Positions 30,239-36,404 are shown, numbered from the stretch's first letter. The stretch is DNA of 64,000 bases from Burkholderiales bacterium (GCA_035632415.1 DASQGW010000132.1:2563-66562); one strand, 5' to 3'. The notes: generated from the letters alone by a model not told the origin. Numbers and translations: made by a program.

Positions 30239-31222
30239 CTACTTGCCGAGCATGTAGAGCTGCCACAAATCCTTGTGGCTCATGTGGAGCATCGGCCGGA
30301 TCGCAGCCAATCCGGTCCGGCCGACGCTTTTCTCCAGATACTTCAGCTCCGCGAATTTCTCTCGCGTGGCGTCATCGACCGGCACGTCGAAGCCGCTCTC
30401 GCGCATCATCAGCACGCCCTTCGCGCGCAGCGCGAGCTCGGTGTATAGGCGAAGGTAAGCGAGGAGATCGGCCACCACCAGGCCCTGGAAGCGGTCCTTC
30501 AGCTGAGAGAGATATTTGCCCACCGGCGAATCCGAAAGGCGGCCGGAATTGATGAGCTCGAGCATCTCGGCGTCGGCATCGAAGCCGCGTCCGAGCCAGT
30601 CGCCCACCGCCGCCTCGCTGCGAGTGAACACGGCGTTCAGCAAGAGCGGCATGACGATGGCCACGCCGGCAGTGGAGAGAAAAGGCGAGAAGAGGAAATG
30701 GTTGAAGGCCGAGTGCAGCACCACGGCCGTCACGAAGCCCGGCAGGTAGGCATAGGGCCGCTCGAGCAGTGCGACGGAGGCGATCGCAAAGATCGCGGTC
30801 GCGCCGCCATGCATGATCGCGGTGCCGAAGCCGCGCACGAACCACGCCGCGAGCCCGGCTTGCGGCGCGATCGCGAGGTAATCGAGGTTCTCGACCAGCG
30901 CGAAGCCCGCGCCGACCGCGAAGCCGAAGATCGCGGCGTCGACGAGGAAGCCGATGCGGTGCGTGCGGATGAGCGCGAAGATCACTGTCGCTTTCAGCGC
31001 TTCCTCGATCACCGGGGAGACATAGCGCGTGTAGAAGGCGAAATCGAAATGCGCGAGCAGCGCGCCGTTCACGAAGTACGCGATCCCGGCGATCACCATG
31101 CCCGCGGCTACGGCGGCGACCACTGCCCGCAGGCGCACCAGCTTGTAGCTATCGAGGAGGACAAGCGCGCCCAGGAAGCAAAGCACCGGAGCGAGGCCGA
31201 GCAACGGGCGCACGAAATTCAT
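30239..31222 (-). CDS. PrsW family intramembrane metalloprotease
   Basis: Starts MNFVRPLLGLAPVL and is polytopic. Has the PrsW motifs EExxK (VIEEALKAT) and HxxxN (LHSAFNH), plus a soluble C-terminal extension of about 100 aa. Its start codon overlaps the stop of the upstream gene by 1 nt. Confidence 0.8.
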   Translation of the reverse strand: MNFVRPLLGLAPVLCFLGALVLLDSYKLVRLRAVVAAVAAGMVIAGIAYFVNGALLAHFDFAFYTRYVSPVIEEALKATVIFALIRTHRIGFLVDAAIFGFAVGAGFALVENLDYLAIAPQAGLAAWFVRGFGTAIMHGGATAIFAIASVALLERPYAYLPGFVTAVVLHSAFNHFLFSPFLSTAGVAIVMPLLLNAVFTRSEAAVGDWLGRGFDADAEMLELINSGRLSDSPVGKYLSQLKDRFQGLVVADLLAYLRLYTELALRAKGVLMMRESGFDVPVDDATREKFAELKYLEKSVGRTGLAAIRPMLHMSHKDLWQLYMLGK

Positions 31223-34191
31223 TACATGATCTTGAGCGAGACCATCCATTCGTCGCCGCTGCGCGTGGCGCCCTTGTAGCCGACGGCATAGCCCACCGAG
31301 AGCGTCATCTCGTACCAGTGCAGGACGCTGAAGCGCAGGTCCGCCTGCGCGCCGACGTTGTTGTAGCGAGTGCGGTAGGAGCTGTCGCTCGGATCGGTCC
31401 ACAGCGCCGTGGCGAAGAGCGCCGGACGCAGCCACGCCAGGTAGAACGCGGGCGTGCCGACCGACTCGAACACGACCGGCGGCAGGTTGGCCTCGAGCAT
31501 GCTGCGGGCGAAGGTGCGCCCACTCAGCTCGTTCAAGTCGAAGCCGGGCATGGAGTAGTAGTCGCGGTAGCGCTTCTCGTTGTGCGCGTCGACCCAGTTG
31601 TTGCCGAAGCCGCCGAAGAAGAAGTTCGCGTAGGGATCCGAGCGCTCGCCGTGCGCGACACCCGCGGCGTTGCGCAGCCAGATCGACGAGTGGCCGAGCG
31701 GCAGCGGCACGCCGAAGTCGAGCCCGCCGCGCAGCTGCGGGCTGAACGTGTCGTTCGCGTAGTTGCTGTAGAAGACCCCGTTCGCGACGATTCCCTTCTC
31801 GTCGTCGACCGCGCCGCGCGACTTGCGCGTATCGGTGTAATAGAGCCCGGCCTCGGCGGTGACGAGCCGCTCCGCGGTCGCCGCGACGTTCTGCGCCGCC
31901 GGCAGCGCGTCGAGGTTGTGGTAATAGGCGAGGTCGGACTTGAAGTCGAGCCGCCGCGGCTCGTCGAAGATGAGCGCCTTGTCGTAGCCGCCGTCGGTCT
32001 GGAAGCCGCGCCGGCTGCGGATCGTCGGGCCGAAGAGGTCGTAGAAGTCCGAGCGGTTGTACGCCGCCCCGGCGTGCCAGTTCAGGTACTGGTAGCGCGC
32101 ATCGACGTGCGTGCGCTCGTTCGACGGCAGGTCCTGCGATGGCGTGAACGCGGCCGTGATGCCGAGCGTGCCGAGGTCGAGCGGGTCGTCGATGAAGACG
32201 TGGTAGCCGATGCCGATCTTGCGCTTGTAGCCTTGCAGCACCGGGTACGCGCTCTCCACGCCCAGGCGCTTGAGCGGCAGGTAGGCGCCCTTGTCGATGA
32301 CGAGCTTCTGGTCGTCCACGGTCGAAGGCGCCGGCACCTGCCAGGTCTTCACCACCGGGTGCTTCTCCGCGAGCTCCGCTCCAAGGAAAGTGATCGCGCT
32401 CACGTCCTTGAGCGGCTTCGGCTCGATCATCGCCGGCACGAAGCCGTCGGCGGTGTAGTGAAGGACGATGAGCTTGCCGTCGTCGAGCGGCACGGGACGG
32501 AAATAGCCCGCCTCGGCGTTCGACACCGCCTCGACGTCGCCGCTCGCCACGTCGTAGCGGAAGATGTTCGAGACGCCGGTGTAATAGCTCGAGCCGTAGA
32601 GGGAGCGGCCGTCCTTCGAGAAGACGAAGCTCTCGGGCACCGAGGTGCCGAACTTGAATTCGCTCACCGGCTTGAATTCACCCTTCAGCACGCGCTCGAG
32701 CTCCCAGACCTTCAGGAACTGCTCGCCGCTCACTTCCGCCACGGACGCGGAGACGAGCCGGCCGTCGGGCGAGATGTCGAGGTCGTACGGGACGACGCCA
32801 TAGGGGAACGTGTAGATCTGATTCCACTCGGTGTAGGGGTACGGGATGCGCACCAGCGTCGCGAGCGCGCTCTCGTGGCGTATGCCGAGGAGCGAGCGGT
32901 CGACCGGGTTGAACACCAGCTCGCCGATGCGCGAATCGGGCAGCAGGTCCTTGACCTCGCCGGTGTCGACGTTGACCGCCATCACGTCGCGCAGCGCATG
33001 GTTGTCGTTCGAGTAGAAGAGCGTGCGGCTCGCCGGGTCCCAGGCGAGGCCGGTCACCTTGTAGAGCAGCGTGTCCTTCAGGTCGACGATACGGCGTACC
33101 TGGCCGGTCTTCGTATCGAGCGCGCCGATGTGCGCCACCACGCCCTGGTAGTCGAACGCGCCGTACAGGATGCCCTTGTCGTAGTACAGGCGCGAGCTCG
33201 AGCCGACCGCCGTCGGCACGAGCTGCCGGTACGGCGTGATCGGCTGCGTGCGCACCTGGGCGAGGTTCTTCGCCTGGAAGTCGCGCTCGAACGCGATCCA
33301 GTCGGCCCAGGCGCGCTCGAGCGGGATGCCGAACACATGCTCGAACTGGTCGGCGTAGTGGCGCTTGCTGTCCTCGTCGCGGCGCAGCCACTGGATCACC
33401 TTCTCGGGCGAATAGGCGTAGGCGAGCCAGGTGAAGAAGCGCGTGCCGTAGAGATAGGCGTTCGATCCCACCTGGAAGTCGATGCGCGTGCCGCGCGAAT
33501 CGAGGCCCAGGGGATCGTAGAAGTGCGCGTGGTCGCGCACCATGGCGCGGAACACCATCTCGTAGAAGCCGCTCTGCACCCGGCCGAGGCCGCCCGCCAT
33601 CCACGTTTCCATGAACACGGCGCTGCCTTCCGCGTACCAGCGAGGCACGGTAAAGCGCGGCACGGTGAGATAGCTGTAGAGCAGCGTCTCGGGATGAGGC
33701 TGCGTCGGGAACACCTTGCCGCCGAAGAAGCGGCGCCACTTGCGGTCGGTCTCGCTCGCGATGTCGGTCGTCGCCACGTGCGTGAGCTCGTGGTTCATGA
33801 TCGAGTACAGGCGCTCGGAGGCCGAGAAGGTCTCGAAGGCATACGAGACGGGCGCCATGTCGAAGCGCAGCGTGTTCCGCGGCAGCGGCGAGGCGCTCGC
33901 GTTGCCGTAGTCCGAGAAGTCCTTCAGGAACACGGTGACCTTCTCGTAAGGCTCCCAGCCGAGGACGCGCCGCTGGAAGGCGAGCGCGTTGGTGAAGGTA
34001 CGCACCGCGTGCGGCGCGAGATAGGAGAGCTGCGGGTCGAAGTAAACCAGCCGCAGGTCCTTCGTCTCGACGAACGAAAGGCCGAGCGGGTTCACTTCGG
34101 CACCGTGCGCCGCGCTTCCGAGCGCGAGCGCCAGCCCGATGATGAGCGAGCGAATGCTTCCCCTCCCCCAGAACGAAACCGCCGACCCCAA
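31222..34191 (-). CDS. large exported protein: HExxH metallopeptidase-like head + PD40/TolB-like beta-propeller repeats + Tyr/Gly-rich C-terminal half
   Basis: Contains IMNHELTHV followed by WYAEGSAVFMETW (Peptidase_MA-like HExxH...E). PD40-like repeats are present (DISPDGRLVSAS, FSKDGRSLYGSS, WDPASRTLFYSN). The 5' end is uncertain. TTG at 34191 is the only canonical option. An in-frame ATT at 34155 sits 6 nt after GGGGAGGGG and would give a textbook signal peptide (M)RSLIIGLALALGSAAHG/AE. The 1249-aa track ORF is an artefactual extension through the repeat array. Confidence 0.8.
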   Translation of the reverse strand: MGSAVSFWGRGSIRSLIIGLALALGSAAHGAEVNPLGLSFVETKDLRLVYFDPQLSYLAPHAVRTFTNALAFQRRVLGWEPYEKVTVFLKDFSDYGNASASPLPRNTLRFDMAPVSYAFETFSASERLYSIMNHELTHVATTDIASETDRKWRRFFGGKVFPTQPHPETLLYSYLTVPRFTVPRWYAEGSAVFMETWMAGGLGRVQSGFYEMVFRAMVRDHAHFYDPLGLDSRGTRIDFQVGSNAYLYGTRFFTWLAYAYSPEKVIQWLRRDEDSKRHYADQFEHVFGIPLERAWADWIAFERDFQAKNLAQVRTQPITPYRQLVPTAVGSSSRLYYDKGILYGAFDYQGVVAHIGALDTKTGQVRRIVDLKDTLLYKVTGLAWDPASRTLFYSNDNHALRDVMAVNVDTGEVKDLLPDSRIGELVFNPVDRSLLGIRHESALATLVRIPYPYTEWNQIYTFPYGVVPYDLDISPDGRLVSASVAEVSGEQFLKVWELERVLKGEFKPVSEFKFGTSVPESFVFSKDGRSLYGSSYYTGVSNIFRYDVASGDVEAVSNAEAGYFRPVPLDDGKLIVLHYTADGFVPAMIEPKPLKDVSAITFLGAELAEKHPVVKTWQVPAPSTVDDQKLVIDKGAYLPLKRLGVESAYPVLQGYKRKIGIGYHVFIDDPLDLGTLGITAAFTPSQDLPSNERTHVDARYQYLNWHAGAAYNRSDFYDLFGPTIRSRRGFQTDGGYDKALIFDEPRRLDFKSDLAYYHNLDALPAAQNVAATAERLVTAEAGLYYTDTRKSRGAVDDEKGIVANGVFYSNYANDTFSPQLRGGLDFGVPLPLGHSSIWLRNAAGVAHGERSDPYANFFFGGFGNNWVDAHNEKRYRDYYSMPGFDLNELSGRTFARSMLEANLPPVVFESVGTPAFYLAWLRPALFATALWTDPSDSSYRTRYNNVGAQADLRFSVLHWYEMTLSVGYAVGYKGATRSGDEWMVSLKIM

Positions 34192-34220
34192 AACGAAACC
34201 GCCGACCTTTAGGCCGGCGG
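34186..34220 (-). terminator. terminator/attenuator-like hairpin between anti-sigma gene and large exported-protein gene
   Basis: The minus strand reads ccgccggcc-taaa-ggtcggcgg followed by tttcgttttg. This is a 9-bp stem with one mismatch and a T-rich tail. Confidence 0.45.
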
Positions 34221-34246
34221 TCCTTGTTACGACTTGTCGGCGGCGC

Positions 34247-35527
34247 TTATTTTGACTGCGAGGCCATCGATGCGGAAGCCGCGGCGGCAAACGCCTGGGG
34301 ATTGGCCGACATCGCCTGCATCGCCTGGGGGTTCGCCGCCATCGCCTGGAACGCCTGCGGATTCGCGGCGAGCGCCTGGAAGGCCTGCGGGTGAGCGGCC
34401 ATCGCCTGGAAGGCCTGCGGGCTCGCGGCGAGCGCCTGCATCGCTTGCGGATTCGCCGCCATCGCCTGGAAGGCTTGCGGGTGAGCGGCCATCGCCTGGA
34501 ACGCCTGCGGGCTCGCAGCGAGCGCCTGCATCGCCTGCGGATTCGCCGCCATCGCCTGGAAAGCCTGCGGATTCGCCGCCATCGCCTGGAAGGCTTGCGG
34601 GTTGGCCGCCAGGGCCTGCATTGCCTGCGGGTTGGCCGCGAGCGCCTGGAAGGCCTGCGGATTCGCCGCCATCGCCTGGAAGGCCGACGGATTCGCCGCG
34701 GCAGCCTGGAAGGCCTTCGGGCTGTTCGCGAAGGCCGCGAAGGCCTGCGGATTGGCCGCCATCGCCTGGAAGGCCTGCGGGCTCGAAGCCATGGCCTGGA
34801 ACGCTTGCGGGTTCGCCGCCATCGCCTGGAAGGCCTGTGGGTTCGAGGCCATCGCCTGGAAGGCTTGCGGATTCGCCGCCATCGCCTGGAAGGCTTGCGG
34901 GTTCGCTGCCATCGCCTGGAAGGCCTGTGCGTTCGCCGCGAGCGCCTGCATCGCTTGCGGATTTGCGGCAACGGCCTGGAACTGCGGATCCTTTATGGCC
35001 TTGACGACCACATCGCTCTGCAGCGCCTGCGCGACCGACTGGTCGGCGAGCTTCACGTCCTTGGTCTGGATCGGCTCGGCCGACCGATAGCGCTGGGCTG
35101 GCGTGATGGTGCCCGCAAGCTGGTCGCTTGGCGGCACGTCGAACACGAAGTAACTCACGCCTGCTGCAATCACGGCCACGCTGACGGCGGCCCACACCAA
35201 GCGCTTACGGGCAAAGGGTGCTTGCTGGCCCATTTGAATCTCCCCCAGAAAAATTGTTGGCAACGATATCCCACTTACGCGCAACCACGAGAAAAGTTTG
35301 TGTGCACCGCGGTATGGAGGTGTGTACTTTTTCACGATTCCCTCGGCCAGGTCCGCCGGCGGATTGACCGCCGGTACCCGCGCCAGGGTCTCGAAAAGCC
35401 CTCGCAGCGCGTCGAATTCGGCCTGCGCCGCCGGGTTGGCGGCAAGGTATTGCCGGAGCTCGCGCTCCTCGGCGGGACTTGCCGCGCCGTCGAGCACCGC
35501 GTGCATCAATTCGGTATGTCGGTTCAT
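34247..35527 (-). CDS. anti-sigma factor with decapeptide-repeat extracytoplasmic domain
   Basis: ATG overlaps the ECF sigma stop as ATGA. The N-terminus MNRHTELMHAVLDGAASPAEERELRQYLAANPAAQAEFDAL is anti-sigma-domain-like. One transmembrane segment (RLVWAAVSVAVIAAGVSYFVF) is followed by about 24 copies of ANPQAFQAMA. An internal ATG (MGQQAPF, preceded by GGGGGAG) could be an alternative start. Confidence 0.8.
   Translation of the reverse strand: MNRHTELMHAVLDGAASPAEERELRQYLAANPAAQAEFDALRGLFETLARVPAVNPPADLAEGIVKKYTPPYRGAHKLFSWLRVSGISLPTIFLGEIQMGQQAPFARKRLVWAAVSVAVIAAGVSYFVFDVPPSDQLAGTITPAQRYRSAEPIQTKDVKLADQSVAQALQSDVVVKAIKDPQFQAVAANPQAMQALAANAQAFQAMAANPQAFQAMAANPQAFQAMASNPQAFQAMAANPQAFQAMASSPQAFQAMAANPQAFAAFANSPKAFQAAAANPSAFQAMAANPQAFQALAANPQAMQALAANPQAFQAMAANPQAFQAMAANPQAMQALAASPQAFQAMAAHPQAFQAMAANPQAMQALAASPQAFQAMAAHPQAFQALAANPQAFQAMAANPQAMQAMSANPQAFAAAASASMASQSK
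34276..34990 (-). repeat. 30-bp tandem repeat array (~24 units) inside the anti-sigma CDS
   Basis: The plus-strand unit is approximately gccatcgcctggaaggcctgcgggttcgcc, repeated head-to-tail without spacers. A 90-bp higher-order period is visible (gtgagcggcc at 34391 and 34481). Confidence 0.95.
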
Positions 35528-36072
35528 GCCGTCGCCATGTGCTTGAGGAGCGTGCGCAGCCGGCCGCGGGCCTCGAAAAGCCGCGACTTCACCGTCTCGA
35601 CCTTGAGCTCGAGGATGTCGGCGATCTCCTCGTAGCTGCACTCCGAGAAGTGTCGCAAGGTGAGCACTGCCCTGTCGGTGAACTTCATCTGCATCAAAGC
35701 CTTCTGCACCTCTTTCGAAACCTGCGCGGCACCGAGCCGCGACTCGGGGTCGGCGTCTTCCGCCGGCGTCCCGTCCCCGCCGTCCTCGAGCGGTTCCTCG
35801 CGGCCGGCGCGGCGCAGCAAATTCAGCGACTCGTTCAGGGCGATGCGGTACACCCAGCTGAAGAACTTGTACCGCGCGTCGTACCCGCCCAGCCGCTCCG
35901 CGACGCGCAGGAAAACCACCTGCGTGATGTCGCGCGCATCTTCCTCGCGGCCGAGCACCCGGAAGGCCGCGTTGTACAGGGGCCTCTGGTACTTCAGTAC
36001 GAGCTGCCTGAACGCGGCGTTGTCGCCGCGGCGCAGGCGCTCGACCAGCGCATCATCGGGCTCCCTGTCCAC
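35524..36072 (-). CDS. ECF (group 4) RNA polymerase sigma factor
   Basis: 182 aa. Region 2 (...RQLVLKYQRPLYNAAFRVLGREEDARDITQVVFLRV...) and region 4 (...CSYEEIADILELKVETVKSRLFEAR) are recognisable. Confidence 0.9.
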   Translation of the reverse strand: MDREPDDALVERLRRGDNAAFRQLVLKYQRPLYNAAFRVLGREEDARDITQVVFLRVAERLGGYDARYKFFSWVYRIALNESLNLLRRAGREEPLEDGGDGTPAEDADPESRLGAAQVSKEVQKALMQMKFTDRAVLTLRHFSECSYEEIADILELKVETVKSRLFEARGRLRTLLKHMATA

Positions 36073-36107
36073 TCAATTACACGCCGGCGGCGGGAAAGTT
36101 GGCGTTC

Positions 36108-36404
36108 TTATTTGGCCGCCTCGATCTCGAAGATCTGGTCGAAGCCCGAATACTGCAGGATGTCGCGCAAGTGCCGGCTGACGCCGGCGAGGCGAAGCTT
36201 GCCGCCCGCGGCCATGAGCCGCTTCTGCGTCTTGAGCAGCACGCCGAGCCCCGCGCTCGAGATGTACTCGAGCTGGCCGCAGTCGAGCGTGACCGTGCCC
36301 GAGACCTTGTCGAGGAAGGACTGCGCGTTCGCGCACTGCGCGGCGTCGAGCCGCCCGGCGATGACCACCGTGCCGGCGGCAGGACCGTTCTCAATCGTCA
36401 GCAT
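36108..36404 (-). CDS. STAS-domain anti-sigma factor antagonist (RsbV/SpoIIAA-like)
   Basis: 98 aa. The LEYISSAGLGVLL motif contains the conserved phosphorylatable Ser position. Overlaps the upstream gene by 14 nt. Confidence 0.85.
   Translation of the reverse strand: MLTIENGPAAGTVVIAGRLDAAQCANAQSFLDKVSGTVTLDCGQLEYISSAGLGVLLKTQKRLMAAGGKLRLAGVSRHLRDILQYSGFDQIFEIEAAK

Follow-up and report, generated by a model that had tools for sequence, protein, structure and literature searches.

A tandem-decapeptide periplasmic tail on a putative anti-sigma factor, linked to genes for a PrsW-family protease and an Omp85-like protein in a Burkholderiales bacterium

Pairs of extracytoplasmic function (ECF) sigma factors and anti-sigma factors are a major envelope-signalling route in bacteria, and for most groups both the sensed signal and the sensor domain are obscure. 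The question is raised in an unusual form by a 64,000-nt stretch of DNA from a Burkholderiales bacterium (GCA_035632415.1 DASQGW010000132.1:2563-66562; hereafter the window, with positions counted from its first nucleotide), in which an ECF sigma gene is followed by the gene of a putative anti-sigma factor that ends in 24 tandem decapeptides encoded by a 30-bp DNA array. What might such a tail do? We found that the array is the periplasmic tail of the anti-sigma factor, that the sensor is kept as a repeat amid turnover of its sequence and length, and that it is coupled to two predicted proteases, of which one is outer-membrane-anchored. The components are familiar; what is new is their combination, and a sensor that stays repetitive as one unit sequence gives way to another. 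In our estimate there is an even chance that the tail serves a regulated-proteolysis cascade as its extracytoplasmic substrate or tether; such a cascade would resemble RsiW/PrsW with an outer-membrane partner added. The features discussed are listed in Table 1.

The initial annotation, made from the sequence alone, had described about 24 decapeptides in the frame of an anti-sigma factor, running to within 10 residues of the stop codon, and this description held. We counted 24 in-frame units followed by eight residues and the stop, and the homologues are read in the same uninterrupted frame. Tandem Repeats Finder placed the array at 34290-34982 (period 30, 23.1 copies, 77% matches, 0 indels, score 665), and it is the sole large tandem repeat in the window. 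The units are mostly NPQAFQAMAA and NPQAMQALAA, the first being degenerate (KDPQFQAVAA), and the terminal Lys/Arg of the protein is kept in betaproteobacterial relatives. The 240 repeat residues comprise 95 Ala, 44 Gln, 23 Pro, 20 Phe, 19 Met, 18 Asn and 9 Ser, the remainder being 6 Leu, 2 Lys, 2 His, 1 Asp and 1 Val. The array is thus rich in Met, Gln, Phe, Ala and Pro with few charges, as first described, and it holds two Lys where one had been reported. Pairwise differences between units at codon positions 1, 2 and 3 were 0.19, 0.08 and 0.43, and the codon-pair differences were synonymous in 720 cases versus 554 non-synonymous. It follows that the frame is right and that the peptide, not the DNA alone, is constrained; the decapeptide sequence is under purifying selection within this lineage. 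Other reading frames and the plus strand (open reading frames 34234-35004 and 34391-35635) were rejected on the codon-position pattern and the homologues.

A higher-order period of 90 bp had also been noted. It is real, with a mean unit identity of 0.80 at lag 3 versus 0.77 at lags 1-2, and with an 86% self-match of a 300-nt block at a 90-nt shift versus 78-81% at other shifts. It is also weak and local, and goes back to a block of three units (AMQALAA / AFQAMAA / AFQAMAA) in the array's distal half.

Ordinary reads can resolve the array, because the longest exact repeat inside it is 40 nt and few 31-mers are non-unique (33 of 820). The soil-metagenome run X1, the source sample, contains 99% of the sampled words of 33200-36200, and its independently built Logan unitigs tile 33771-36200 with 0-1 mismatches. 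In four soil metatranscriptomes, contigs of slightly diverged relatives span 34258-36058, the array included, with no indels. An assembly artefact was therefore ruled out by the short internal repeats, the independent unitigs and the RNA contigs, with the unit count of 24 resting on short-read assembly.

The protein of 426 aa is a predicted single-pass anti-sigma factor, and its binding and inhibition of the sigma factor are putative. Its ATG overlaps the stop codon of the ECF sigma gene (ATGA, 35524-35527), and the two genes are translationally coupled. This overlap, the helical anti-sigma-like N-terminus and the one transmembrane segment agree with the function first assigned to it. In AlphaFold2, run on a 19-sequence alignment, residues 1-40 were all helical with a predicted local distance difference test (pLDDT) of 83-95, and confident helices were found over residues 3-49. 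Among aligned homologues M8, A10, V11, L12 and D13 are invariant. The NCBIfam matches to this domain were weak: PRK13920 'putative anti-sigmaE' at 6.3e-8 over residues 5-84 (32 bits versus a cut-off of 225), and NF052375 'antisigma' at 30 bits, far under its cut-off of 100. No match to Pfam zf-HC2 or RskA was found in the protein. Because residues 1-100 contain no Cys, the domain is not zinc-binding. Between it and the transmembrane segment, a linker motif HKLFSWLRVSG (more widely QLFSxSRV; residues ~66-86, ~35270-35330, minus strand) is conserved; in the window it overlaps an AT-rich stretch.

An N-in, C-out orientation is suggested by the positive-inside rule, the transmembrane segment being preceded by a basic cluster. 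The best-conserved extracytoplasmic part is the juxtamembrane segment, with the family motif GT[IV]xPAQRY and invariant residues G139, T140, A144, Q145, R146, Y147, L160, D162 and Q163; this motif is a candidate protease recognition or cleavage site. Just before the transmembrane segment the gene carries an internal Shine-Dalgarno sequence and ATG. Most orthologues that bear the anti-sigma domain have a Met 39-43 residues ahead of the AQRY motif (28-35 in a few), and in 69% of them a Shine-Dalgarno run of at least 4 nt precedes it, versus 21% of internal Mets taken as background. Where orthologues lack the anti-sigma domain, the annotated, true start is the equivalent of this Met99. The gene may thus yield a second, tail-only isoform from Met99 that lacks the anti-sigma domain. 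Domain and tail as two separate genes were also considered, and this was rejected since no domain-bearing orthologue has an intervening stop codon.

How general is the tail? The protein search returned 24 close homologues. The nine closest complete ones (53-63% identity, 392-408 aa) have the same domain order and a tail of ~20 units, which are heterogeneous (e.g., ANSAAFAALASNAAVFNAVLSNPSAFAQYASN). A motif-based scan of one genome per GTDB species gave 181 loci and a metagenome scan 41 more, and phmmer with the segment comprising the transmembrane helix and the motif gave 235 cluster representatives. One phmmer match was discarded as spurious: P0148 (2240 aa, 11 matched stretches), a repeat protein with no relation to the family. 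In all ~120 orthologous loci the tail is a tandem repeat, and the unit differs wholly between lineages, with periods of 3, 4, 5, 6, 8, 9, 10, 12 or 15. Ten-residue units of the form N-[PA]-x-A-[FM]-x-A-[LM]-A-x occur in Alphaproteobacteria and many Betaproteobacteria, including charged versions such as NAEAARFLxx, and 9-mers (NAQFQALAS, NNSDFKGLV, DERFRKLxA) in Gammaproteobacteria. A betaproteobacterial subgroup has simple polar units (ASN, GGAS, QSSPN, GGANA, NQGTA, GQST, AARGSD, SATAKAVD, GSSG[VI] and others). Tail length ranges from 73 to 514 aa and Met content from 0 to 7%. Based on this family-wide survey, the array in the window is an unusually homogeneous member of the 10-mer class. Selection across the family appears to act on the length and repetitiveness of the tail, not on a particular chemistry.

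Similar units occur in two other contexts. In P0017 (367 aa) AFQALA-type 10-mers are fused to an ECF sigma factor with a SnoaL-like extension, and in P0252 (627 aa) they precede a glycosyltransferase-like region. The contigs of both are short or noisy, and either protein may be a chimera produced by a frameshift or by assembly.

The number of units changes as well. Two close relatives with the same unit carry 23 units (L087, 81% identical) and 28 units (L086, 75%), compared with 24 in the window; at 75-81% identity these are related lineages and do not represent strains within a population. The first unit and the last two are common to all three, as is a central landmark triplet (NPQAFAAFAN-xPxAFQAAAA-NPSAFQAMxA), which is preceded and followed by 8 and 13 units in the window, 10 and 15 in L086, and 10 and 10 in L087. 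Whole units have therefore been gained and lost on both sides of the landmark, which bears out the copy-number change that had been predicted from the DNA array.

In AlphaFold2 the repeats form an unbroken run of short helices (pLDDT 65-80): each unit is an 8-residue helix (x0-x7 of each decade) broken at Asn-Pro, whereas the linker, the transmembrane segment and the juxtamembrane part have pLDDT <50. Foldseek against the PDB gave only weak, generic alpha-solenoid matches, namely armadillo repeats and a phage receptor-binding protein at E 6e-4, all with TM-score <=0.38. A pentapeptide-repeat fold (A[D/N]LXX beta-helix) was rejected on the period of 10, the lack of a Pfam Pentapeptide match and the exclusively helical AlphaFold2 model. 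Structurally, the tail represents an old repeat of 10 residues that has been homogenised and recently resized; its unit has an Asn cap and Pro/Ala, followed by two helical turns in which position 5 is Phe/Met and position 8 Leu/Met.

The genes around the tail are more constant than the tail itself. Six window proteins were mapped onto 85 loci. The full order (GAF-PP2C-HATPase, STAS, ECF sigma, anti-sigma/tail protein, a protein of ~980 aa, PrsW) was found in Betaproteobacteria (Usitatibacter, Casimicrobiaceae and other Burkholderiales metagenome-assembled genomes) and in Gammaproteobacteria (Lysobacterales, Rhodanobacteraceae, Rudaea and a cultured Halieaceae, WMMBA7, L071). Alphaproteobacteria (Sphingomicrobium, the two cultured Sphingomonas RB1R13, L040, and URHD0057, L047, and Caulobacteraceae) have a three-gene core of tail protein, ~980-aa protein and PrsW with no sigma gene, and here the tail protein begins just before the transmembrane segment. 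An intermediate form in five betaproteobacterial loci retains the PP2C and STAS genes and has lost both the sigma gene and the anti-sigma domain; in these sigma-less loci (L015, L017, L020, L022, L054) PP2C/STAS remain linked to the tail and protease genes. The three arrangements indicate that the sigma gene and the anti-sigma domain come and go together and that the triad is the constant core, its three genes being syntenic in essentially every locus that extends far enough. No match to PADLOC defence models was obtained for any of the six cassette proteins.

The ~980-aa protein is the predicted outer-membrane partner. It consists of a signal peptide, a domain with the HExxH sequence HELTH (134-138), a TolB-like beta-propeller (~320-590) and an Omp85-like barrel of ~16 strands (~640-989). 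AlphaFold2 (pLDDT 80.5, predicted TM-score 0.79) gave an alpha/beta-plus-helical HELTH domain and ~16 long strands (644-988). The propeller dominates the Foldseek results, the best matches being TolB propellers (E 5e-9), including TolB-colicin peptide and TolB-Pal complexes. TolB propellers bind disordered peptides, as in colicin TolB-box complexes. Pfam Omp85_2 scored 22.9 bits with the isolated barrel and 19.5 with the full protein, versus a cut-off of 23.1, and a precomputed PF19143 (Omp85_2) match exists for several homologues. Of 68 loci, 67 keep N-H-E-x-x-H and, farther along, E-G (residues 188-189) unchanged. For the HExxH domain neither Pfam nor the PDB gave a significant sequence match, the best being a BSP peptidase at E 0.21, and the protein has no sequence relatives in the PDB, as a single sequence or as a profile. 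More than 6253 homologues were found at E <=1e-10; among those listed all are named 'hypothetical protein' save one 'WD40 repeat protein'. Omp85 proteins with a TolB-like propeller have been grouped as an uncharacterised 'WD40-Omp85' subfamily (Heinz and Lithgow 2014, PMC4104836), and the ~980-aa protein, judged by that description, probably belongs to it.

The gene start of this protein deserves comment. The public gene call uses an upstream TTG (989 aa). In the clade of the window (L002, L015, L017, L022) ATT or ATC followed by CGN stands where other clades have ATG-CGN (Met-Arg), and lies 6-8 nt after GGGGGAGGGG, which suggests a non-canonical Ile-codon start directly behind the terminator. 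An ATT at 34153-34155 is the probable start in the window.

The ATG of the PrsW gene overlaps the stop codon of the ~980-aa gene. The EExxK, H and HxxxN motifs of PrsW are present in 60 of 62 loci, and the NCBIfam PrsW equivalog was not reached (24 bits versus 225). The protein also has a cytoplasmic C-terminal extension of ~130 residues with no Pfam match; the PrsW of Bacillus subtilis has ~218 aa and no such extension. On the other side of the sigma gene, the PP2C fusion and the STAS protein would form a partner-switching module, judged by their domains.

Table 1. Predicted features of the anti-sigma locus and its neighbours in the window.
Feature	Position	Strand	Basis
PrsW-family intramembrane protease, 328 aa	30239..31225	minus	Pfam PF13367 3.3e-15, 56.6 bits vs 23.5
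Outer-membrane partner (P0025), 989 aa as called	31222..34191	minus	AlphaFold2, Foldseek, Pfam
Intrinsic terminator hairpin CCGCCGGCC-uaaa-GGUCGGCGG + U run	34190..34221	minus	Sequence, 3' of anti-sigma stop
Anti-sigma factor gene, 426 aa	34247..35527	minus	Open reading frame list, translation; homologues full-length in one frame
Non-repeat C-terminus ASMASQSK + stop	34247..34273	minus	Translation and homologues
30-bp array, 24 units NPQA[F/M]QA[M/L]AA, residues 179-418	34274-34993	minus	Tandem Repeats Finder and translation
Juxtamembrane motif GTITPAQRYRS...DVKLADQ, residues 139-163	35039..35113	minus	Alignment invariance
Single transmembrane segment, residues 110-129, after basic cluster ARKR	35141..35200	minus	Sequence; AlphaFold2 helix 105-129
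Internal Shine-Dalgarno GGGGGAG (35240-35246) + ATG of Met99 (35231-35233)	35231..35246	minus	Conserved, just before transmembrane segment
Cytoplasmic anti-sigma domain, ~residues 1-80 (LMHAVLDG... helices)	35288..35527	minus	Weak NCBIfam matches, AlphaFold2
ECF sigma factor, 182 aa	35524..36072	minus	Pfam Sigma70_r2 2.4e-14, Sigma70_r4_2 9e-14, Sigma70_ECF
ECF-type autoregulatory promoter CCAACTTT-N13-CGTGTAAT	36076..36101	minus	Upstream of sigma gene, conserved motif
STAS anti-anti-sigma-like protein, 98 aa	36108..36404	minus	Pfam STAS_2 4.9e-16; syntenic in beta/gamma loci
GAF-PP2C(SpoIIE)-HATPase_c_2 fusion, 592 aa	36391..38169	minus	SpoIIE 6e-41, GAF 2e-19, HATPase_c_2 7e-16

PrsW of B. 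subtilis is described in the cited accounts as the site-1 protease of the anti-sigma-W factor RsiW (PMC3482391, PMC10202637). In the cascade proposed here, the long repeat tail would reach, or be held by, the periplasmic part of the outer-membrane protein, and when intact or bound would shield the juxtamembrane segment (GTIxPAQRYR...DVKLGDQ). On perturbation of the envelope the tail would be released, or degraded by the HExxH domain; PrsW would then make the site-1 cut near the membrane, and a site-2 protease and cytoplasmic proteases would clear the remaining anti-sigma domain. The freed sigma factor would transcribe from its own promoter, CCAACTTT-N13-CGTGTAAT. That the tail may be a protease 'bait' had been suggested at the outset; the synteny with PrsW and the HExxH protein and the conservation of both sets of catalytic residues agree with this part, and cleavage itself is deduced from the synteny.

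Several observations weigh against the proposed cascade. We infer the cleavage, the contact between tail and outer-membrane protein and the inducing signal all from synteny. The AlphaFold2 model of the tail is of medium confidence and has no close structural analogue, and the NCBIfam models match the anti-sigma domain weakly, far under their cut-offs. Simple polar tails (GGAS, ASN) cannot form the helices of the 10-mers, which speaks against a sequence-specific binding function common to the whole family. The alphaproteobacterial triads have no sigma output, and signalling is thus not the ancestral or the only role of the tail. A terminator lies between the anti-sigma and protease genes, and in most clades the latter have a sigma-70-like promoter of their own; the protease genes are therefore not simply co-regulated with the sigma gene.

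A more elaborate form of the cascade, which we regard as unlikely, is a trans-envelope proteolytic device in which the repeats of the inner-membrane protein serve as a 'measuring tape' that crosses the periplasm and enters the propeller/HExxH chamber of an Omp85-type outer-membrane protease. The number of units, adjustable as units are gained and lost, would set the threshold of disturbance at which the tape is consumed, PrsW fires and the sigma factor, where present, is released, and the internal start would supply a decoy tail, lacking the anti-sigma domain, that tunes this threshold. If true, such a proteolytic tape would be a new coupling of the state of the outer membrane to transcription, with a signalling threshold set naturally by repeat number.

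The alphaproteobacterial triads also bear on a different explanation, that the tail is primarily a tether or ruler which spans the periplasm from the inner membrane to the Omp85-like partner, as in TamB-TamA. Sigma signalling would then be secondary, an accessory that responds when the link is lost or the width of the periplasm changes, and the proteases would serve turnover. In its favour, triads without sigma or anti-sigma domain exist in Alphaproteobacteria and some Betaproteobacteria, and tail length is held within clades (e.g., 435-440 aa in most Sphingomicrobium-type loci). A barrel with large periplasmic domains and a repeat predicted as a rod-like run of short helices are also consistent with it. 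However, the ~7-fold range of tail length (73-514 aa) and the change from 23 to 28 units between close relatives do not suit a ruler, disordered GGAS- and ASN-type tails would be poor ones, and the two proteases, with their catalytic sites intact, are never missing. A mainly structural tether is the chief rival of the proposed cascade, and we consider it rather improbable.

The remaining three explanations were ranked low, because the residues that they call for are missing from tails with which orthologous cassettes work. The first of them, which we think very doubtful, takes the tail as a sensor of hydrophobic clients similar to STI1: a Phe/Met/Leu groove would bind exposed segments (of unassembled outer-membrane proteins, lipoproteins or amphipathic antimicrobial peptides) and thereby expose the anti-sigma factor to PrsW. 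Eukaryotic STI1/XPC-type domains bind hydrophobic clients via NPxx-capped helices rich in Met, Leu and Gln. In a helical wheel of the unit Phe5 and Met8 fall together on one side, opposite Gln3 and Gln6, and the peptide is under purifying selection; yet the hydrophobic moment of 0.31 is reached by 33% of composition-matched shuffles and is not significant. The whole sequence scored 33 bits with Pfam XPC-binding (cut-off 26.4), and one relative has a precomputed PF09280 match, but not a single stretch passes, and the score is therefore a sum of repeated compositional matches. UBQLN1 (23.2 versus 27) and STI1-HOP_DP (22 versus 29.1) were both under their cut-offs. With no domain-length match over threshold and no STI1-like match in Foldseek, membership in the STI1, XPC-binding or ubiquilin families was rejected. 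The similarity is a resemblance of NPQ-capped Gln/Met/Phe helices that is probably convergent, and orthologous cassettes have tails without any hydrophobic residues.

Display at the cell surface, with the tail threaded through the Omp85-like barrel as in two-partner secretion (TPS) and diversified under selection by phages, predators or neighbours, is less probable still. It would account for the very fast turnover of unit sequence and number between lineages, near-perfect simple repeats as found in many Betaproteobacteria are typical of contingency-type surface proteins, and the partner has a 16-strand barrel similar to Omp85/TpsB. Against this, known Omp85-type barrels, unlike TpsB-type barrels, are closed outward (PMC4104836), selection on the units within this lineage is purifying and not diversifying, a TPS-type secretion domain is lacking, and an inner-membrane anchor combined with outer-membrane threading is without precedent. 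The suggestion of the initial annotation that a Met-rich tail senses oxidants (by Met-sulfoxide) or soft metals (Cu/Ag) fared worst and is highly improbable: 19 Met in 240 almost uncharged residues (7.9%) and a periplasmic location, where HOCl and Cu would act, speak for it, whereas many orthologous tails have no Met, Phe or Gln at all, the Met positions are occupied by L, I, V or A in homologues of 57-63% identity and in part in relatives of 75-81%, MxxM/MxM spacing of the Cu(I) type is confined to one unit, the tail has no Cys and 2 His, and none of the six conserved genes of the cassette is an Msr, Cop or Cus gene.

The regulated-proteolysis reading was compared with known systems. With the sigma-W/RsiW/PrsW system of B. 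subtilis the locus shares an ECF sigma factor, a co-transcribed single-pass anti-sigma factor and, in the same locus, a glutamic intramembrane protease of the PrsW family with intact EExxK / H / HxxxN motifs; the best NCBIfam matches to the sigma factor include SigW (111 bits). It differs in its Gram-negative host, in an anti-sigma domain without the HxxxCxxC zinc motif, in a 240-aa extracytoplasmic tandem repeat where RsiW has a globular domain of ~100 aa, and in the additional HExxH/propeller/Omp85-like partner and PP2C/STAS module. Since the zinc motif is lacking and the sigma factor scores under the SigW cut-off, the protein is not an RsiW orthologue. In the sigma-E/RseA/DegS/RseP system of Escherichia coli a single-pass anti-sigma factor is likewise cut at site 1 and then at site 2 on envelope signals, and the promoter is autoregulated and of the AAC...CGT type. 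Unlike that system, the cassette lacks RseB and a DegS/PDZ protease, PrsW is the candidate for the site-1 cut, and the periplasmic part is repetitive and hypervariable.

Other parallels concern the outer membrane. In FecA-FecR-FecI and HasR-HasS an outer-membrane barrel gene also lies beside the genes of an ECF sigma factor and a single-pass sigma regulator. Regulators of the Fec/Has type contact the outer-membrane protein by their periplasmic part, which in HasS is partly disordered (PMC3984077). Here the barrel is Omp85-like instead of a TonB-dependent transporter, a predicted protease and a propeller replace the signalling domain, and a FecR-type periplasmic domain is absent. The partner resembles 'WD40-Omp85' proteins in its Omp85-type barrel and non-POTRA, TolB-like N-terminal propeller; neither an HExxH domain nor a linkage to PrsW and a repeat tail is mentioned for them (PMC4104836). 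As in TamA-TamB, an Omp85-family gene adjoins that of an inner-membrane-anchored protein with a long periplasm-spanning part, but the span of TamB is a beta-taco of fixed sequence, and Tam has neither proteases nor a sigma output. With their N-P-x starts and their many Gln, Met, Leu and Phe residues, the short helices recall STI1, ubiquilin and Rad23; STI1-type domains, however, are bundles of 4-5 helices and ~50 residues in the eukaryotic cytosol, compared with a 240-residue array of strict 10-residue period in the bacterial periplasm. In the literature searched, including the ECF reclassification (PMC7826278) and the Omp85 survey (PMC4104836), no such cassette or tandem-repeat anti-sigma tail was found. 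With more than 6000 homologues of the outer-membrane partner in public data and no described function for them, the cassette is a sizeable blind spot in the envelope biology of soil Proteobacteria, and it suggests a testable role for 'WD40-Omp85' proteins and for PrsW in Gram-negative bacteria.

Expression of the locus was assessed from regulatory sequences and metatranscriptomes. The sigma factor scores 102 bits with NCBIfam TIGR02937 sigma70-ECF (cut-off 42.9), and its best equivalog-level matches (PRK12513, SigW, RpoE) are all under their cut-offs, SigW at 111 versus 209 bits. An AAC / CGT signature is typical of ECF promoters. A search for the canonical GGAAC-N-CGT promoter failed; the conserved motif is instead CCAACYTTT-N12-13-CGTGTAAT, which was found upstream of the sigma gene in all 45 loci with printed upstream sequence (55 extracted). 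It has one match in the 64-kb window (36078-36101) versus 0.01 expected, and the single copy indicates that no other member of the regulon is nearby. Contigs from the metatranscriptomes reach as far as 36054-36058, where one runs into sequencing adapter; this fits a transcription start just 3' of the -10 element. At the other end RNA coverage halts at ~34258, by the terminator, whose hairpin (ACCGCCGGC...GCCGGCGGTTT) is kept in most beta- and gammaproteobacterial loci. The conserved promoter, the terminator and the limits of the RNA together define sigma and anti-sigma as an autoregulated two-gene unit. Most other clades have a sigma-70-like promoter (TTGCAT-N17-TATGCT) for the protease genes, whose -35 element is at the same time the U run of the terminator; this promoter is carried by L043, L049, L056, L057, L062-L077 and others, and is not present in the clade of the window.

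Some minor observations were made on the transcripts and the intergenic region. The metatranscriptome contigs, from two studies, cover the sigma/anti-sigma unit alone, with nothing over the STAS gene or the start of the ~980-aa gene. Word depth over the array is far above that of the rest of the gene, probably through related repeats of many strains piling up. The terminator's 3' arm and U run are repeated in a tandem duplication of 20 bp at 34166-34207 (2.1 copies, 95% matches), which puts TCGGCGGTTTCGTTYTGGGG twice between the anti-sigma stop codon and the ribosome-binding site of the next gene.

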